This document shows, piece by piece, positions 3,438 through 62,918 of a DNA stretch of 64,000 nucleotides. The notes under the pieces were generated by a model. The model did not search any database, was not told the DNA's origin, and saw only the letters and a program-made list of their open reading frames with translations. Numbering within the stretch: the stretch's first letter is position 1; the number at the start of each line of letters is the position of its first letter. Source of the stretch: an uncultured Atopobium sp. (GTDB lineage: Bacteria; Actinomycetota; Coriobacteriia; Coriobacteriales; Atopobiaceae); assembly GCA_963509815.1 (NCBI GenBank), contig CAUPCM010000005.1, forward strand, positions 149 to 64,148, written 5' to 3'. The position numbers and the translations under genes were made by a program.

Positions 3438-3641
3438 TATCTGCCGTTCTCTCTTTATCTAAATGGTATTGACCGTTAGCTATGCAAGTTTTTCTCGATT
3501 TATATGCCTAGTGTACCGTCTACCTACCGTTGAGGGCAACTTGTCATATCTCAAAAAAACGGGGTATATCTCTATGTAAAATGTGGGTAATAGAAAGTCA
3601 ACGTTTAGCTACTTGTAGCACGTATATATTTGGAGCGGATA

Positions 3642-24642: not shown

Positions 24643-24864
24643 CTATGACCAGTGTGGTAAGTCATGAAAGTCTTTTATATGGTCTTGAGCTTCCTGTTCT
24701 CTTTCTGCCAAGGCTTCTCGTAAACCTTTCAGTGCATCAAAAGGCATAAATATTTTTGCCCTATTTGCTCGCGACATACGAGGGTGTCCGTAATGCATCT
24801 GAGCTGCAAACGCATCCTCTTTTGCGGTGGCTTCCGCTGGCGAGAAACCCTGTTTAGGCCTCAT
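24643..24864 (-). CDS. YolD-like protein (small partner of Y-family polymerases)
   Basis: The ATG at 24864 has GGAG 9 nt upstream and overlaps the polymerase stop by 11 nt. The motif KIFMPFDALKGLREAL fits the YolD-like family, as does the position directly after a UmuC/UvrX-like gene. The ORF track extends to 24966. Confidence 0.65.
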   Translation of the reverse strand: MRPKQGFSPAEATAKEDAFAAQMHYGHPRMSRANRAKIFMPFDALKGLREALAEREQEAQDHIKDFHDLPHWS

Positions 24865-56148: not shown

Positions 56149-56286
56149 AAACAGTATCCCTTTCTTCTCCGTTGGCTAGCCCGCTTAAGGGAAAGTCGAG
56201 CTAACACCGGATTACCACGGTACCGCGCGTATCTACTATGCGCGGCATACGAACCCGTACCTCAAAAGAGGCACGGGAGAAAAACC

Positions 56287-56586: not shown

Positions 56587-57212
56587 TATGCGAGCACCTC
56601 CCCAAGCTGCTTAGCGACATCAGCGGACATAACAAGTGCGCCGTTGTCGATCAGGAAACGAGTAGTAACCTCAGAAACACCAAAGATTGAAACCTTAGGA
56701 AGGTTACGGAAAGAGAGGTAAGTGTTGACGTCGTCGTCTGGGACGATGACGGTAACGCGCTTACCCTCAATACCGAGGTTCTGAAGTGCAGCCTTTGCCT
56801 GCTTGGTGGAAGGCTGAGCAAACTCGAGAGAGTCAACGAGGACAAGCTCGGAGTCTGCAACCTTGCCGGAGAGGACGGACCTCATAGCAAGCTTGACCAT
56901 CTTGTTGTTAATACGACGTGCGTGGGAACGAGGGGTAGGTCCAAAGATGACGCCACCACCAGTCCACTGACCAGCACGAATAGAACCCTGGCGAGCACGA
57001 CCAGTACCCTTCTGACGGTAAGGCTTAACGCCACCGCCGGATACCTCGTGACGGTTCTTTGTAGAGTGGGTACCCTGACGTGCGGATGCGTCCTGGCAGA
57101 CTACAACCTGGTGCACAACAGGGATGTTTGGCTCAATGCCATAGACGTCAGAGGAGAGCTCGGCGTCGCCGACCTTCTTTCCCTCTACGTTCTTAATCTC
57201 ATACTTGGACAT
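56586..57212 (-). CDS. rplD: 50S ribosomal protein L4
   Basis: VHQVVVCQDASARQGTHSTKNRHEVSGGGVKPYRQKGTGRARQGS. Confidence 0.97.
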   Translation of the reverse strand: MSKYEIKNVEGKKVGDAELSSDVYGIEPNIPVVHQVVVCQDASARQGTHSTKNRHEVSGGGVKPYRQKGTGRARQGSIRAGQWTGGGVIFGPTPRSHARRINNKMVKLAMRSVLSGKVADSELVLVDSLEFAQPSTKQAKAALQNLGIEGKRVTVIVPDDDVNTYLSFRNLPKVSIFGVSEVTTRFLIDNGALVMSADVAKQLGEVLA

Positions 57213-57251
57213 GTTGTCTCCTTGTTAGCCTAAGTGTTTGCCTAAAGGCCC

Positions 57252-57872
57252 TTAGGCCATGCGGACCTGGACGAGGGCATTCTTGCCGCCAGGAACAGCA
57301 CCCTTGATAAGCATGAGGTTCTGCTCAGCATCAACGCGGACAAGCTTAAGGTTCTTGACCGTAACGCGCTCTGCGCCCATGTGACCATACATGTGAAGGC
57401 CCTTACGAACGCGTGCAGGGTATGCGCACTGACCAATGGAACCTGGACGACGCTGGTTACGAGAACCGTGAGTCATTGGACCGCGAGAGAAGTTCCAGCG
57501 CTTAACGGTACCCTGGAAACCCTTACCCTTAGAAGTGCCTGTTACGTCAACAGCGGTGACCTCGGAGAAGTCAGCAACTGTGACAACATCGCCGGTCTTG
57601 TGCTCAGAAGCATCCTCAACGCGGACCTCGCGGAGGTAACGCATTGGCTCGACGCCCTGTGCCTTGAAGTGACCAGCCATTGGCTTGTTGACATGCTTCT
57701 CAGAGATGTCGCCGAAGCCAATCTGTACGGCATTGTAGCCGTCCGTCTCAACAGTCTTTACCTGTGAAACGGTGCAGGGGCCAGCAAGAACGACGGTAAC
57801 AGGAACGACGTTGTCGTTCTCGTCCCATACCTGGGTCATGCCCAGCTTGCGGCCGAGGATGGTATTAACCAT
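57252..57872 (-). CDS. rplC: 50S ribosomal protein L3
   Basis: MVNTILGRKLGMTQVWDENDNVVPVTVV...KGKGFQG. The ATG at 57872 has an AGGAAAGAG RBS; the track ORF extends to 57941. Confidence 0.96.
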   Translation of the reverse strand: MVNTILGRKLGMTQVWDENDNVVPVTVVLAGPCTVSQVKTVETDGYNAVQIGFGDISEKHVNKPMAGHFKAQGVEPMRYLREVRVEDASEHKTGDVVTVADFSEVTAVDVTGTSKGKGFQGTVKRWNFSRGPMTHGSRNQRRPGSIGQCAYPARVRKGLHMYGHMGAERVTVKNLKLVRVDAEQNLMLIKGAVPGGKNALVQVRMA

Positions 57873-58078
57873 GCTCTTTCCTAACCTTCGGTGGTCATGG
57901 GACCTTGAGAGCACATCGGGTACTCTTCCCCAGCGGACCACGTCCTGTACATACTGCCTTTAGACATAATTGTCCTGTTTGAGCAGCCCGTCTACTTTAC
58001 ACTCATTTTTGACAAGAAACAAGCCTAAAATCTCTAAAAGATGAACGCTTTGTGAAGAGCGTTTGATACCTTCTAGCT

Positions 58079-58098
58079 GCGAGATCTTTCTTCTCGCC
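58079..58098. repeat. GCGAGA-N7-TCTCGC(C) hairpin (GGCGAGAA family)
   Basis: gcgagatctttcttctcgcc. The TTCTCGCC at 58091-58098 can also pair with GGCGAGAA at 58139-58146. Confidence 0.65.
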
Positions 58099-58136
58099 TA
58101 TTTTGCGAGGTCAAACCGCTGACCCGGGCGTATCCA

Positions 58137-58150
58137 TTGGCGAGAAACCC
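58137..58150. repeat. left arm of the perfect 14-bp inverted repeat flanking the phosphatase gene (TTGGCGAGAAACCC)
   Basis: ttggcgagaaaccc at 58137-58150. Its exact reverse complement gggtttctcgccaa lies at 58870-58883. Confidence 0.85.
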
Positions 58151-58288
58151 TAATAATTTTGAAAGATTTTTCTGAAAAAATTTGTCGGAACAATCCGCGG
58201 AAACGACTCTGCCAAAATCAGGATGCCAAGATTACTTTGCAAAACTAAGCACCTAACGCTAAGTAAAATGGTAACTAAGCAACTAAAA

Positions 58289-58825
58289 CTAGGCAGCTAT
58301 AAGTTTCTTGAACAATGCTTCACAACCCTCAGTGACATCCTCATACGTCAGGTCAAAATTGCCCGAATACCACGGATCCGCGATATCGCGAGGCTTCTCT
58401 GTCCAGTCAAGAAGCAACAAAACCTTTCCAAGCGGATCATCCTTAAGCATACGCATCATGTTGCGCAGGTTGTTGTGATCCATACCAATGAGGTAATCAA
58501 ACTCCTCATAATCTGCGCGAGTCATCTGCCTGGCGCGATGATTGCCGCAATAGATCCCCTCTTGCTGCAGTTTTCTACGCGTGCGAGGGTCCACAGGATT
58601 GCCGATCTCTTCTGTGGATGTTGCGGCTGAGTCAATGAAGAATGAATCTGCCAGACCGTTTTTCTCGACAAGGTCTTGCATGACATATTGCGCCATTGTT
58701 GACCTGCAAATATTTCCGTGACACACAAAGAGGATCTTGGTCACGTGGGAGTTCTCCGGGCGGCCGGTGTTCATCTGGTTGCTTATATTCAGCTGGCTAC
58801 TTGCGTTCTGCTGGTTATGCTTCAT
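58289..58825 (-). CDS. low-molecular-weight protein tyrosine phosphatase (LMW-PTP)
   Basis: P-loop ILFVCHGNICRST (CxGNxCRS) and Asp-loop DIADPWY. The ATG at 58825 has AGGAGAAAAG upstream; the track ORF extends to 58933. The gene sits between rpsJ and rplC. Confidence 0.88.
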   Translation of the reverse strand: MKHNQQNASSQLNISNQMNTGRPENSHVTKILFVCHGNICRSTMAQYVMQDLVEKNGLADSFFIDSAATSTEEIGNPVDPRTRRKLQQEGIYCGNHRARQMTRADYEEFDYLIGMDHNNLRNMMRMLKDDPLGKVLLLLDWTEKPRDIADPWYSGNFDLTYEDVTEGCEALFKKLIAA

Positions 58826-58869
58826 CTTTTCTCCTGCGCTTTGTGCGAGTATTTGCTTTCTAATTCTAC

Positions 58870-58883
58870 GGGTTTCTCGCCAA
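58870..58883. repeat. right arm of the 14-bp inverted repeat flanking the phosphatase gene
   Basis: gggtttctcgccaa, 45 nt upstream of the proposed phosphatase start. Confidence 0.85.
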
Positions 58884-58936
58884 GTGCAGGTGCGGGCATT
58901 CAGCTCTTTCATCACGCTGAATTTATCGCTCACCTA

Positions 58937-59128
58937 ATCCAAAACCTGCGCAGTTATGTGTGTGATACTGGCTATTGTAGATTTTTGGAGCTCGATTAAT
59001 CCAAAAGCGCATTAATTATGTGTCGAGAAACCCGATTTTGATCCAAAACCCACCTAATTATGTGCCTTTCCGCACATAATTGCCTCACTTTTGGATTAGG
59101 CGGACACATAATTACCCAGGTTTTGGAT
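58937..59128. repeat. array of five copies of the bipartite motif ATCCAAAA-N9-TTATGTG (three direct, then two inverted)
   Basis: Forward copies lie at 58937-58960, 58999-59022 and 59041-59064. Inverted copies (CACATAA-N9-TTTTGGAT) lie at 59073-59096 and 59105-59128. Both boxes are perfect in all five copies and the spacer is always 9 nt. Confidence 0.9.
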
Positions 59129-59250
59129 CAATCGACCCTGAAAAATCTACGAAGTGGCGCCACGCAGGCGGGCGCGGGTCTATGCGAGACCTCGCGAACT
59201 TACGCGGTCCTTCGCACGTGATTCGTGCATGCTTCTATGTCCATCCACGC

Positions 59251-59286
59251 AAAAACCCTCCCACGCGGAGATGCGCAGGAGGGTTT
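59251..59286 (-). terminator. intrinsic terminator immediately after rpsJ
   Basis: On the minus strand: aaaccctcc-(16-nt loop)-ggagggttt followed by ttgcg, starting 24 nt after the rpsJ stop. Confidence 0.65.
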
Positions 59287-59309
59287 GCACGTTGGATTAA
59301 GCCGTATGC

Positions 59310-59618
59310 TTAGAGCTTGATCTCGATATCGACACCAGCTGGAAGGTCGAGACGCATAAGCGAATCAACGGTAGAAGCGCTTGGGTCGAGAATATCGATG
59401 AGACGCTTGTGAGTGCGCATCTCGAACTGATCACGGGAATCCTTATCCTTGTGTGGTGAGCGGATAACGGTGTAAAGGTTGCGCTCGGTTGGCAGAGGGA
59501 TAGGACCGGAAACACGCGCACCTGTCTTCTGTGCGGTGTCAACAATCAGCTTAGCGGACTGATCAATGACCTCGTGATCATAGCCCTTGAGGCGAATCCT
59601 GATCTTCTGGCTTGACAC
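59310..59618 (-). CDS. rpsJ: 30S ribosomal protein S10
   Basis: (V)[44 protein letters not shown]... The GTG at 59618 has GGAGGT 7 nt upstream and gives the canonical 102 aa; the track ORF starts at 59633. Confidence 0.95.
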
Positions 59619-59661
59619 TTTGGGTACCTCCATAAATGAGCTAGAGCTCGTGGTCGTTTAC

Positions 59662-61758
59662 TTAGGATGCAGAGCCGCCGTTTTTGGCGACAATCTCTTC
59701 GCGTACAGCGTTAGGAACGGGCTCGTAAGAATCGAACTGCATGGTGTAGCTCGCGCGGCCCTGGGTCTGGGAACGAAGGTCGGTTGCGTAACCGAACATC
59801 TCACCAAGAGGCACCTTAGCGCGGATGACCTTGGCGTCCATACGATCGTCCATACCCTCAATCTTGCCACGACGGGAAGAAAGGTTGCCCATAACGTCGC
59901 CCATGTACTGCTCAGGTGTCTCAACCTCAACAGACTCAACTGGCTCGAGAAGGACTGGGTTAGACTTCTTGAGAGCATCCTTAATTGCCATAGAACCAGC
60001 AATCTTGAATGCTGCCTCGGAGGAGTCGACCTCGTGGTAAGAACCGTCAACAAGAGTGACCTTGATGTCGACTACTGGGTAACCAGCAATGACACCGTTC
60101 TCAAGAGCCTCACGAATGCCCTTATCGATAGATGGGATGTACTCCTTAGGAATAACACCACCGACGATAGCGTTGACAAACTCGTAACCCTTGCCCTCTT
60201 CCTGTGGCTCAAGGTCAATGACTGCGTGGCCATACTGACCCTTACCACCGGACTGACGGACAAACTTGCCCTCAGCGTGGCTTACTGCCTTACCAGCAGT
60301 CTCGCGGTAAGCAACCTGTGGCTTACCAACGTTGCAGTCAACCTTAAACTCACGACGGAGACGGTCAACAATAATCTCAAGATGAAGCTCGCCCATACCA
60401 GCAATGATGGTCTGGCCGGTCTCGTGATCAGTGTGAACCTGGAAGGTTGGGTCCTCTTCAGCCAGCTTAGAAAGGCCGATGGACATCTTCTCCTGCTCAG
60501 CCTTGGTCTTTGGCTCAACAGCAACGTCGATAACAGGATCTGCGAAGCTGATGGACTCAAGGATGATTGGGTTCTTCTCGTCACAAAGGGTGTCGCCAGT
60601 AGTGGTGTTCTTCAAACCAACGCATGCAACGATGTCGCCTGCGGAGCACTCATCACGGTCAACACGGTCGTTTGCGTTCATCTCAAGGATGCGGCCAAAG
60701 CGCTCACGGTTGTCCTTGACGGAGTTGTAGACGTAAGAACCTGCCTCAGCCTGACCAGAGTAAACACGAATGTAGGTAAGCTTACCAACATAAGGGTCAG
60801 TCATGATCTTGAATGCAAGAGCGGAGAATGGCTCCTTAACATCTGCGTGACGGACAGCCTCATCACCCTTAGGAGTGACGCCATCAATCTCTGGAACATC
60901 CAGAGGGCTTGGAAGGAAGTCGATGACTGCGTCCAGAAGCTCCTGGATACCCTTGTTCTTGTAAGCGGAACCAACAAAGACAGGGTTAATCTCACCAGCA
61001 AGGACGCCAGCACGAAGAGCACCCTTAAGGGTCTCAACGTCAACCTCTTCACCCTCGAGAACAGCCATCATGAGCTCCTCAGAGAAGTCAGAAGCTGCCT
61101 CAAGAAGCTCTTCACGCTTCTCAGCTGCAATCTCTACAAACTCAGCAGGAATCTCGTCGAGTGGCTCAGGGTAAATCATGCCCTTTGCATCCTCTTTGAA
61201 GTCCCATGCAGTGTTGGTGACAAGGTCGATAAGACCCCAGAAGTTGGACTCAGCGCCCATTGGGACCTGAGCTGCAATTGCGTTTGCGCCAAGGCGGTCA
61301 CGCATGGTCTGGATTGCACGGAAGAAGTCTGCGCCTACGCGGTCAAACTTGTTGATGAATGCAATACGAGGTACGCCGTACTTGGTTGCCTGACGCCAAA
61401 CGGTCTCGGACTGTGGCTGAACGCCTGCAACTGCATCGAAGACTGCAACTGCGCCGTCCAGAACACGAAGAGAACGCTCAACCTCAGCGGTAAAGTCAAC
61501 GTGGCCTGGGGTGTCGATGATCTGGATGACGTGGTCTTTCCAGAAGCAAGTGGTAGCTGCGGAAGTAATGGTTACACCGCGCTCCTGCTCCTGAACCATC
61601 CAGTCCATGGTTGCTGCACCGTCGTGGACCTCACCAATCTTGTGGGTCTTACCGGTGTAGTAAAGAATACGCTCCGTAGTGGTGGTCTTACCAGCATCGA
61701 TGTGAGCCATGATGCCGATGTTGCGGAGGTCTTTAAGATTGTACTTAGTCTTAGCCAT
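59662..61758 (-). CDS. fusA: elongation factor G
   Basis: [36 protein letters not shown] and a 698-aa five-domain architecture. Confidence 0.98.
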
Positions 61759-62781: not shown

Positions 62782-62918
62782 CAAGCCACTGTGCCGGGCG
62801 TATCTATACTTCATAGAAATTACACGATGAGACAAGCATTAGTTTTAGACGAAGGAGTCTTTGTTTTCAAAAACTATAAATTTGGCGAGAAATACCTTGG
62901 TTAAGGACGACTCTAAAC

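Follow-up and report, generated by a model that had tools for sequence, protein, structure and literature searches.

Why does a phosphatase gene stand in the middle of a ribosomal-protein gene cluster, and did it arrive there as a cassette? The question is raised by a 64-kb stretch of DNA from an uncultured Atopobium sp. (hereafter the window, by which the whole stretch analysed is meant), in which a 1.4-kb interval (57873-59309) separates rpsJ from rplC and carries a gene for a low-molecular-weight protein-tyrosine phosphatase (LMW-PTP; PTP below), flanked by the two arms of an inverted repeat. An earlier note on this DNA had proposed that a cassette-like insert split the S10 operon. The analysis reported here leads to a different answer: the 1.4-kb stretch is probably the Lancefieldella filling of a spacer that divides two transcription units throughout the sampled Coriobacteriia. 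The gene order itself is an ordinary, previously undescribed, lineage-specific insertion in a hot spot; a literature search found no description of this gene arrangement, of the leader upstream of rplC or of the phosphatase.

Gene order and age of the rpsJ-rplC boundary

All genes concerned lie on the minus strand, in the order rpsL, rpsG, fusA, rpsJ, PTP gene, rplC, rplD and onward, and the coordinates and domain matches on which the earlier note based the succession rpsJ, terminator, PTP gene and rplC proved correct. The rpsJ gene (S10; 59310-59633, minus strand; Pfam Ribosomal_S10, 2e-39) is the last of the rpsL-rpsG-fusA-rpsJ unit, the end of fusA lying 28 nt upstream of it. On its 3' side is a predicted intrinsic terminator (59247-59291, minus strand) with a 14-bp G+C-rich stem, a 6-nt loop and five U residues. 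This hairpin has a folding free energy (dG) of -31.1 kcal/mol (z -5.2), 0 of 200 shuffled sequences folded as well, and it stands directly before the run UUUUU, as is typical of rho-independent terminators; it is conserved in 52 related loci. The rplC gene (L3; 57252-57872, minus strand; Pfam Ribosomal_L3) is the first of the rplC-rplD-rplW-rplB... unit. Neither tRNA nor rRNA genes were found in the window.

The PTP protein was scanned against one genome per species, which yielded a Lancefieldella set of 58 loci from GTDB species representatives (L001-L057 and L059). In all 58 Lancefieldella or 'Atopobium sp.' loci the PTP gene lies beside rpsJ and/or rplC: beside both in 46, and beside one in the other 12, which a contig end interrupts. 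None of the 58 was found to lack the PTP gene or to have it at a second location. The possibility, raised at the outset, that this synteny is common to the class thus holds for the genus only, as the arrangement is absent from other Atopobiaceae and from environmental Coriobacteriia. In Atopobium minutum and A. deltae, the PTP homologues (75% and 66% identity, respectively) lie outside the ribosomal cluster, after EamA and uppP/BacA genes. Because the homologue sits elsewhere in these two species, we conclude that the PTP gene was inserted or moved in the Lancefieldella ancestor and has been kept since; to this extent the insertion event proposed previously is upheld.

Other Atopobiaceae carry other DNA, or none, at the same junction. 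In Parafannyhessea, 741 nt without genes lie between fusA-rpsJ and rplC, and in another lineage of the family rplC follows a glycerol kinase gene, rpsJ being absent from the 3.5 kb upstream. Further rpsJ-rplC junctions, drawn from a metagenome scan, have spacers of 275, 402, 687, 852-884, approximately 1050-1100, 1612-1720 and 5240 nt. Depending on the lineage, the Atopobiaceae cargo consists of a Zn-ribbon membrane protein gene, a HAD hydrolase gene with a histidine phosphatase gene, a glycosyltransferase gene with one for a large membrane protein (a 5.2-kb block), or an antisense open reading frame (ORF); the loci with such cargo are L146, then L096, L109, L121, L149 and L154, and finally L129. 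It was observed that the HAD-type and histidine-phosphatase-type pair occurs in one lineage, so that phosphatases landed at this junction in two lineages independently. Within Lancefieldella, additional DNA has entered between rpsJ and the PTP gene in two loci: a transposase gene of the IS256/Mutator family in L037 (2446-3678, minus strand) and a split GmrSD restriction gene in L054 (1932-3822, plus strand). In the latter locus the repeat arm on the upstream side is missing, and so is the N-terminal extension that the PTP usually has.

In environmental Coriobacteriia the junction is compact: fusA-rpsJ, a structured spacer of 120-128 nt, then rplC. The rplC products of these contigs are 55-63% identical to that of the window, and the nearest named protein comes from a 'Coriobacteriia bacterium'. 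Since these relatives also separate fusA-rpsJ from rplC, the split must predate the phosphatase; the proposal that the insert caused it finds no support in them or in the other Atopobiaceae. The compact spacers of the environmental relatives and the varied cargo of Atopobiaceae indicate that the junction is a boundary of long standing, which in Atopobiaceae turned into a hot spot for insertions. What looked like an oddity, a phosphatase in the ribosomal superoperon, is thereby accounted for as an old insertion into a family-wide hot spot and not as a cassette. More generally, a conserved leader and promoter mark a site that gathers unrelated genes, three of them encoding different phosphatases, in two lineages.

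These results suggest the following scheme. A first unit, rpsL-rpsG-fusA-rpsJ, would be transcribed from the rpsL promoter and would presumably stop at the terminator after rpsJ. A second unit, rplC-rplD-rplW-rplB..., would start at its own promoter, and most rplC transcripts would carry the leader hairpin described below. In Atopobiaceae, the region upstream of the rplC promoter and hairpin would have received DNA in repeated, independent insertions that differed in their cargo. In the Lancefieldella ancestor this cargo would have been the PTP gene, kept from then on under purifying selection and presumably read from a weak promoter of its own. One arm of the inverted repeat abuts the putative -10 box of the PTP gene and the other abuts a GATACGCCCGG box; both would most likely be bound as double-stranded DNA by some factor.

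Putative promoter and leader hairpin of the rplC unit

A possible separate promoter for rplC had been pointed out on weak evidence, and comparison with other genomes strengthened the case. The putative rplC-operon promoter (57994-58022, minus strand) has TTGTTT as its -35 box (58022-58017), a spacing of 17 nt and TAAAGT as its -10 box (57999-57994), and it aligns with a family-wide phylogenetic footprint, TTGTGA-17-TAAACT-AGACAGGCTGC. In the form TTGTGA-17-TA(A/G)A(C/G)T-AGACAGGCTGC, this footprint is found upstream of rplC in about 13 of the Atopobiaceae lineages shown, the spacer sequences being unrelated; L091, L093, L156 and L171 depart from it.

The gap between the PTP stop codon and rplC had been described as an AT-rich leader of 415 nt. 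The gap is real and measures 416 nt, and its A+T content is only 56% overall (G+C of 37%, 42% and 53% by segment). In the part next to rplC, a three-helix RNA hairpin is predicted in the 5' untranslated region (5'UTR; 57891-57941, minus strand), with the consensus G[U/C][G/A]GUC CGC UGGGG A [variable stem-loop] ... UCCCA U GAC[C/U][A/G]C, the window copy running from 57941 to 57891. Its helices are P1 (GUGGUC/GACCAC), P2 (UGGGG/UCCCA) and a variable P3. It ends about 10 nt before the Shine-Dalgarno (SD) sequence of rplC, an SD-like AGGAAAGAG lying at 57874-57882 (minus strand), 3' of the hairpin; the whole rplC 5'UTR would be about 115 nt long.

The hairpin is supported by sequence comparison only: folded as a single sequence, the leader gave no significant structure. 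The scan for the hairpin required exact P2 sequences, and the final alignment was fitted to the covariance model (R1), which scores 88 bits in the window. In the alignment of 29-32 distinct sequences, 93.9% of cells were paired, versus 78% when the sequences were shuffled and 32-52% when the pairing partners were slid. Changes on both sides were observed in 9 of 18 pairs, namely 7 of 7 P3 pairs and 2 P1 pairs, the exchanges in the outer helix P1 being UA to CG in 13 sequences and GC to AU in 2. The hairpin is conserved from Atopobiaceae to environmental Coriobacteriia (L088-L172). Matches to the hairpin pattern without rplC, in marine contigs and others, were rejected as unrelated sequence and, where checked, lay inside a long protein-coding ORF.

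A covarying structure is thus present upstream of rplC and near its ribosome-binding site, as in ribosomal-protein leaders. The E. coli S10 operon has a leader controlled by L4. Like it and the catalogued ribosomal leaders, the structure described here is an RNA placed directly upstream of the first ribosomal-protein gene of a unit, near the ribosome-binding site. It differs from the E. coli leader in that it precedes rplC and not rpsJ, the latter belonging to the preceding unit, and it differs from known ribosomal leaders in general in that it matches no Rfam family and that its binding of a protein is predicted. Rfam scans returned nothing relevant, either for positions 57000-60000 at E values up to 1 or for the whole window at the gathering score. 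The 2020 catalogue of ribosomal leaders lists no rplC leader from Coriobacteriia or Actinobacteria (Eckert & Weinberg; PMC7247131). To judge from its structure and position, the hairpin is most likely a feedback element through which a ribosomal protein would act on the translation of rplC and of the coupled genes. It is a candidate new ribosomal-protein leader RNA, shared by Atopobiaceae of the gut and mouth and by environmental Coriobacteriia. Another hairpin with covariation, GCUGC...GCAGC, lies at about 57950-57986, between the putative transcription start and the leader hairpin.

Farther upstream, next to the downstream arm of the inverted repeat, lies the GATACGCCCGG box (58124-58134, minus strand). 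It occurs three times in the window versus 0.31 expected, always on the sense strand and only upstream of rpsL (62794-62804), rplC (58124-58134) and rplB (56223-56233), all on the minus strand; it is also found upstream of rplC in L088 and L089. It was noticed that the box is followed by nnCAGnGG and that at rpsL it stands just upstream of a TTGACA-17-TAAAGT promoter. In other Atopobiaceae the spacer of the rplC promoter consists of a related sequence, ACGCCCGG; the distal copy upstream of rplC here may accordingly be a relic or part of a second promoter module.

The phosphatase gene

The PTP gene (58289-58825, minus strand) encodes 178 residues, starting with a variable N-terminus rich in Q, N and S, followed by CHGNICRS ... 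DPWY. The match to Pfam LMWPc is full-length (positions 1-144 of 144; 4.5e-34), and both catalytic signatures are present: a C-X5-R-(S/T) P-loop near the N-terminus of the domain (VCHGNICRST) and a DP(Y/W)Y loop with the general-acid Asp (IADPWYSGNF). The best relatives in the PDB are LMW-PTPs, 2gi4 and YfkJ (1e-30 to 1e-28). An Ile rather than a Thr in the P-loop separates LMW-PTPs from arginine phosphatases of the YwlE type. The Ile of CHGNICRS here favours the tyrosine type, and the gene product is, by these signatures, a standard LMW-PTP and a predicted enzyme.

B. subtilis YfkJ, C. jejuni Cj1258 (2gi4) and E. coli Wzb share with it the CX5R(S/T) P-loop, the DP(W/Y)Y loop and the full-length LMWPc domain; the PTP differs from these known enzymes by its variable N-terminal extension of about 28 residues. 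It remains far below the NCBIfam Wzb/Etp equivalog cut-offs (45 versus 243 bits), has no BY-kinase or capsule genes nearby and sits between ribosomal operons.

A check of the G+C content and codon usage of the gene had been proposed. The values obtained, a G+C content of 0.49 and 0.59 at third codon positions (GC3), are typical of the window. Among 48 species, the ratio of nonsynonymous to synonymous substitution rates (dN/dS) in the core of the protein was 0.05, for a dS of 0.65, and protein identity ranged from 81 to 95% across the Lancefieldella loci, compared with 99-100% for ribosomal proteins. By these measures the base composition of the PTP gene is native and selection on it is purifying; it is a working gene of ordinary divergence, set between neighbours under extreme constraint. 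The rplC product is 100% identical at the amino-acid level across the same loci. The dS of the neighbours is 0.016 for rplC and 0.04 for rpsJ, a 16- to 40-fold spread between adjacent genes (L001-L059). The low dS of the ribosomal genes could result from strong codon selection or from recombination that homogenises the ribosomal cluster across species.

Upstream of the gene are an SD sequence, AGGAG (58831-58835, minus strand), and a -10-like box, TAGAAT (58863-58868, minus strand), about 37 nt from the ATG. The box is invariant in the 58 loci that have the region, the window included, and has no conserved -35 counterpart; it is the likely -10 box of a PTP promoter, a role suggested by its conservation and position. 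On the 3' side of the stop codon, a variable, A+T-rich segment (58161-58288, minus strand) is TTAG-rich and poorly conserved and contains a 30-nt duplication. A cluster of TAA/TAG triplets reported there (58243-58292) numbers eight and not seven; the accompanying direct repeat, two copies of AACTAAGCA, was found as described. No terminator was detected after the PTP gene, the fold of the segment 58161-58288 having a z of -0.46, and some PTP transcripts would for that reason probably run into the rplC leader.

PTP homologues of 60-73% identity were also observed on contigs labelled Lachnospiraceae, Prevotella, Alistipes, Bulleidia and Lentisphaerae (L060-L080). They are as close as those of Atopobium sensu stricto (66-75%), which suggests either horizontal spread of the PTP subfamily or mis-binned contigs.

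The inverted repeat, its word and the spacer arrays

The inverted repeat TTGGCGAGAAACCC that had been noticed on either side of the PTP gene is present and perfect over 14 nt, and 86% identical over 22 nt. The upstream arm (TTGGCGAGAAACCC in the sense of the gene; 58870-58883, minus strand) forms a conserved island in an otherwise unalignable spacer; the downstream arm (GGGTTTCTCGCCAA in the sense of the gene; 58137-58150, plus strand) lies where the conserved region upstream of rplC ends on its distal side. The degenerate third copy noted at 59022-59033 was also confirmed (GTGTCGAGAAACCC; 59020-59033, plus strand), inside the type-A array described below.

Such a repeat recalls a mobile cassette, a PTP unit whose ends would be recognised by a transposase or recombinase that brought it in or could move it. 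A perfect inverted repeat of at least 14 nt was found in only 21 of 5000 random regions with matching composition (0.4%), and the IS256-type transposase in L037 shows that the spacer accepts mobile DNA. However, the sequence is not specific to the ends of the unit: the window holds 20 copies of the 14-mer with at most two mismatches, versus 0.46 expected, mostly at unrelated genes, and six copies of the long form YTGGCGAGAAACCC, and given these six an inverted pair within 750 bp has a 16% chance of arising. No target-site duplication is visible at the repeat, where the flanks are CTGCAC and TGGATA, and no transposase or integrase ORF lies within 57873-59309. The unit occupies the same position in all 58 Lancefieldella loci, with neither presence/absence variation nor multiple sites, its base composition is native and its downstream arm belongs to a region conserved with rplC. 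We regard such a cassette as extremely improbable, and the cassette-like frame that the repeat seemed to give the gene is abandoned on these grounds. Another origin was considered and rejected, in which the PTP gene moved from an EamA-uppP-ptp locus and left an exact 14-mer at the EamA gene of the window (30695): this EamA is dissimilar to that of Atopobium and uppP is not in the window.

The arms might instead pair in RNA. In a read-through transcript they would form a 14-bp stem around the PTP mRNA, either to be processed at an RNase III-type site or to stabilise the message as a clamp. In favour of this, the transcribed strand contains the two arms as complements of each other, the PTP gene is not followed by a terminator and most species have kept the arms. 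Yet arm complementarity is perfect in only 29 of 55 species, and in the other 26 an arm has changed without compensation (e.g. TTAGCG, ATGGCG and TTGGTG). Moreover, the upstream arm precedes the putative PTP -10 box and follows the -31 kcal/mol terminator, so that few transcripts should contain it, and at other places in the window conserved copies of the word stand singly. A long-range RNA stem is therefore very unlikely. A local hairpin of the downstream arm with GGCGAGAAG (58091-58101) was rejected as well, as the partner varies (GGGGAG, GGTGAG, GGAGAG) without compensation. In conclusion, independent change of the arms and the lack of a target duplication, of a recombinase and of an empty site argue that they neither bound a cassette nor pair as RNA.

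Each arm is conserved separately. Of 58 loci, 36 have an exact copy of the upstream arm and 54 a copy with at most one mismatch, and its core with the TAGAAT box, CGAGAAACCCGTAGAAT, is unchanged in 52 of 58. The downstream arm is exact in 49 of 57 loci, and the conserved block upstream of rplC begins at the arm. The core of the repeated word, GCGAGAA, is the top 7-mer of the window, with 61 copies (0.95 per kb; 35 on the plus and 26 on the minus strand), located both in coding sequence, in both orientations and all frames, and in intergenic DNA. In the latter it is enriched threefold, 13 of 34 copies of GGCGAGAA lying in about 12% of the sequence. Copies often form close inverted pairs after genes (4571/4583, 10251/10267) or stand right after stop codons; they flank dinB-like, PTS EIIA, DJ-1, EamA and GNAT genes, which rules out a word restricted to ribosomal-protein promoters. 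The word is also not a sigma-70 -35 box or a generic promoter element, since it stands 9 nt from TAGAAT and no -10 box accompanies the other copies. In two Atopobium sensu stricto loci, GCGAGAA occurs once per 8.4-kb locus, about 0.12 per kb. The consensus can be written yTGGCGAGAArnnC, and other sites are found, e.g. at 24837, 26911, 30695, 40769 and 62882. As read from these alignments, the arms are two copies, each conserved independently and in its own right, of the most over-represented word of the window, and some factor most likely recognises them in double-stranded DNA.

Two further explanations for the arms were considered. One DNA-binding protein could act at both arms and at the rpsL upstream region, co-regulating the PTP gene with the ribosomal operons and possibly looping the 720-bp segment, in line with the coupling of phosphatase expression to ribosome synthesis suggested earlier. 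Both arms are conserved islands, the upstream one abutting the PTP -10 box and the downstream one adjoining the GATACGCCCGG box; word and box co-occur at rpsL, where the word lies about 75 nt upstream of the box, and another lineage has two other phosphatases at the same site. However, the word is equally common inside and after unrelated genes, the arms have opposite orientations relative to their genes and no candidate regulator was identified, which leaves this coupling unlikely in our estimation.

Alternatively, the arms could lack a local function and be two instances of a window-wide signal that spread for other reasons, such as a DNA-uptake-type sequence or another drive. The abundance of the word at about 1 per kb without strand bias, its coding copies in all frames and orientations, the intergenic enrichment, the inverted pairs after genes, the low frequency in Atopobium sensu stricto and the 16% chance of such a pair all agree with this explanation. 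Against it, the extreme positional conservation of the arms beside promoter-like boxes suggests a local role, the evidence comes from 64 kb and, to our knowledge, neither competence nor uptake with a sequence bias is documented in these bacteria; a signal without local function is accordingly rated as unlikely. In Neisseriaceae and Pasteurellaceae, the DNA uptake sequence (DUS) and the uptake signal sequence (USS), respectively, are the commonest oligomers, with about one copy per kb on both strands, in genic and intergenic DNA and as inverted pairs after genes. The word resembles them in all these respects in the one window analysed: it is the top oligomer, occurs about once per kb on both strands equally, within and between genes, and forms close inverted pairs after genes. 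It differs in that it belongs to a phylum without known sequence-specific uptake, that its core is 7-9 nt long and that the comparison has a 64-kb basis. A combined possibility, to which we give only a small chance, is that the word is a genus-specific, genome-wide DNA-uptake-type signal, and that one copy of it was taken into service for protein binding in the control region of the PTP gene and another in that of rplC. A DNA-uptake-type signal, if true, would be the first in a Gram-positive actinobacterium. This strongly over-represented word of Lancefieldella, together with the conserved leader hairpin and the hot-spot behaviour of the junction, deserves further study.

Several points count against the preferred reading, a Lancefieldella filling of an old spacer between two transcription units whose arms are separately conserved DNA sites. 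The promoters, the read-through after the PTP gene and the efficiency of the terminator are all deduced from sequence. The window sequence alone does not adopt the leader hairpin as its minimum-energy structure, and the invariance of P2, fixed by the search pattern, is uninformative either way. The word statistics come from a single 64-kb window, and some copies of the word lie within genes, an unusual place for an operator. Finally, the genus as a whole has retained the two arms in place, which makes a joint function (looping or co-regulation) possible.

The spacer between rpsJ and the PTP gene also contains repeat arrays. The motif array of five sites described earlier was recovered: the type-A array (58937-59150, minus strand) comprises five ATCCAAAA-N7-AATTATGTG sites versus 0.01 expected, two in one orientation and three in the other, spaced by 32, 32, 42 and 62 nt. 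Four of them lie inside a 174-nt palindromic element (58977-59150) whose inverted arms are 48 nt long and 79% identical. Type-A sites were found only in the window, L001, L021, L047 and L057. In other Lancefieldella species the same position, upstream of the PTP promoter region, is occupied by unrelated units, either type B (CAAAGAATCTGTGGATTTGCC, with a period of 30-31 nt) or type C (CCATGTCTGAG...TTTGCC, with a period of 31 nt). Each array closes with a perfect hairpin of two inverted units, and copy number varies. The loci compared were L001, L004, L006, L009, L013, L025, L028 and L046, of which L001 and L028 carry two types.

The arrays are either protein-binding arrays or small modular repeat elements. 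Miniature inverted-repeat transposable elements (MITEs), pneumococcal BOX elements and Neisseria Correia elements are small palindromic or modular repeats. The spacer arrays resemble them in being modular, in ending with an inverted pair, in being present or absent between close species and in their variable copy number. They differ from them in that no other copy exists within the 64-kb window and no target duplication was identified, and from random MITE insertion in that three unrelated unit types share a position and a period of about 31 nt. In viral contigs the array motif gave single chance matches only. One half-site of types A and B matches the DnaA box at 7 of 9 positions, which may be a coincidence.

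Between the type-A array and the rpsJ terminator lies a G+C-rich stretch (59151-59246, minus strand) that is variable and unalignable between species and corresponds to a tandem-repeat region in relatives. In L025, just after the rpsJ terminator, a 22-nt tandem repeat is present in 4.5 copies with 97% matches (3535-3632), of which region the stretch in the window is a degenerate, single version.

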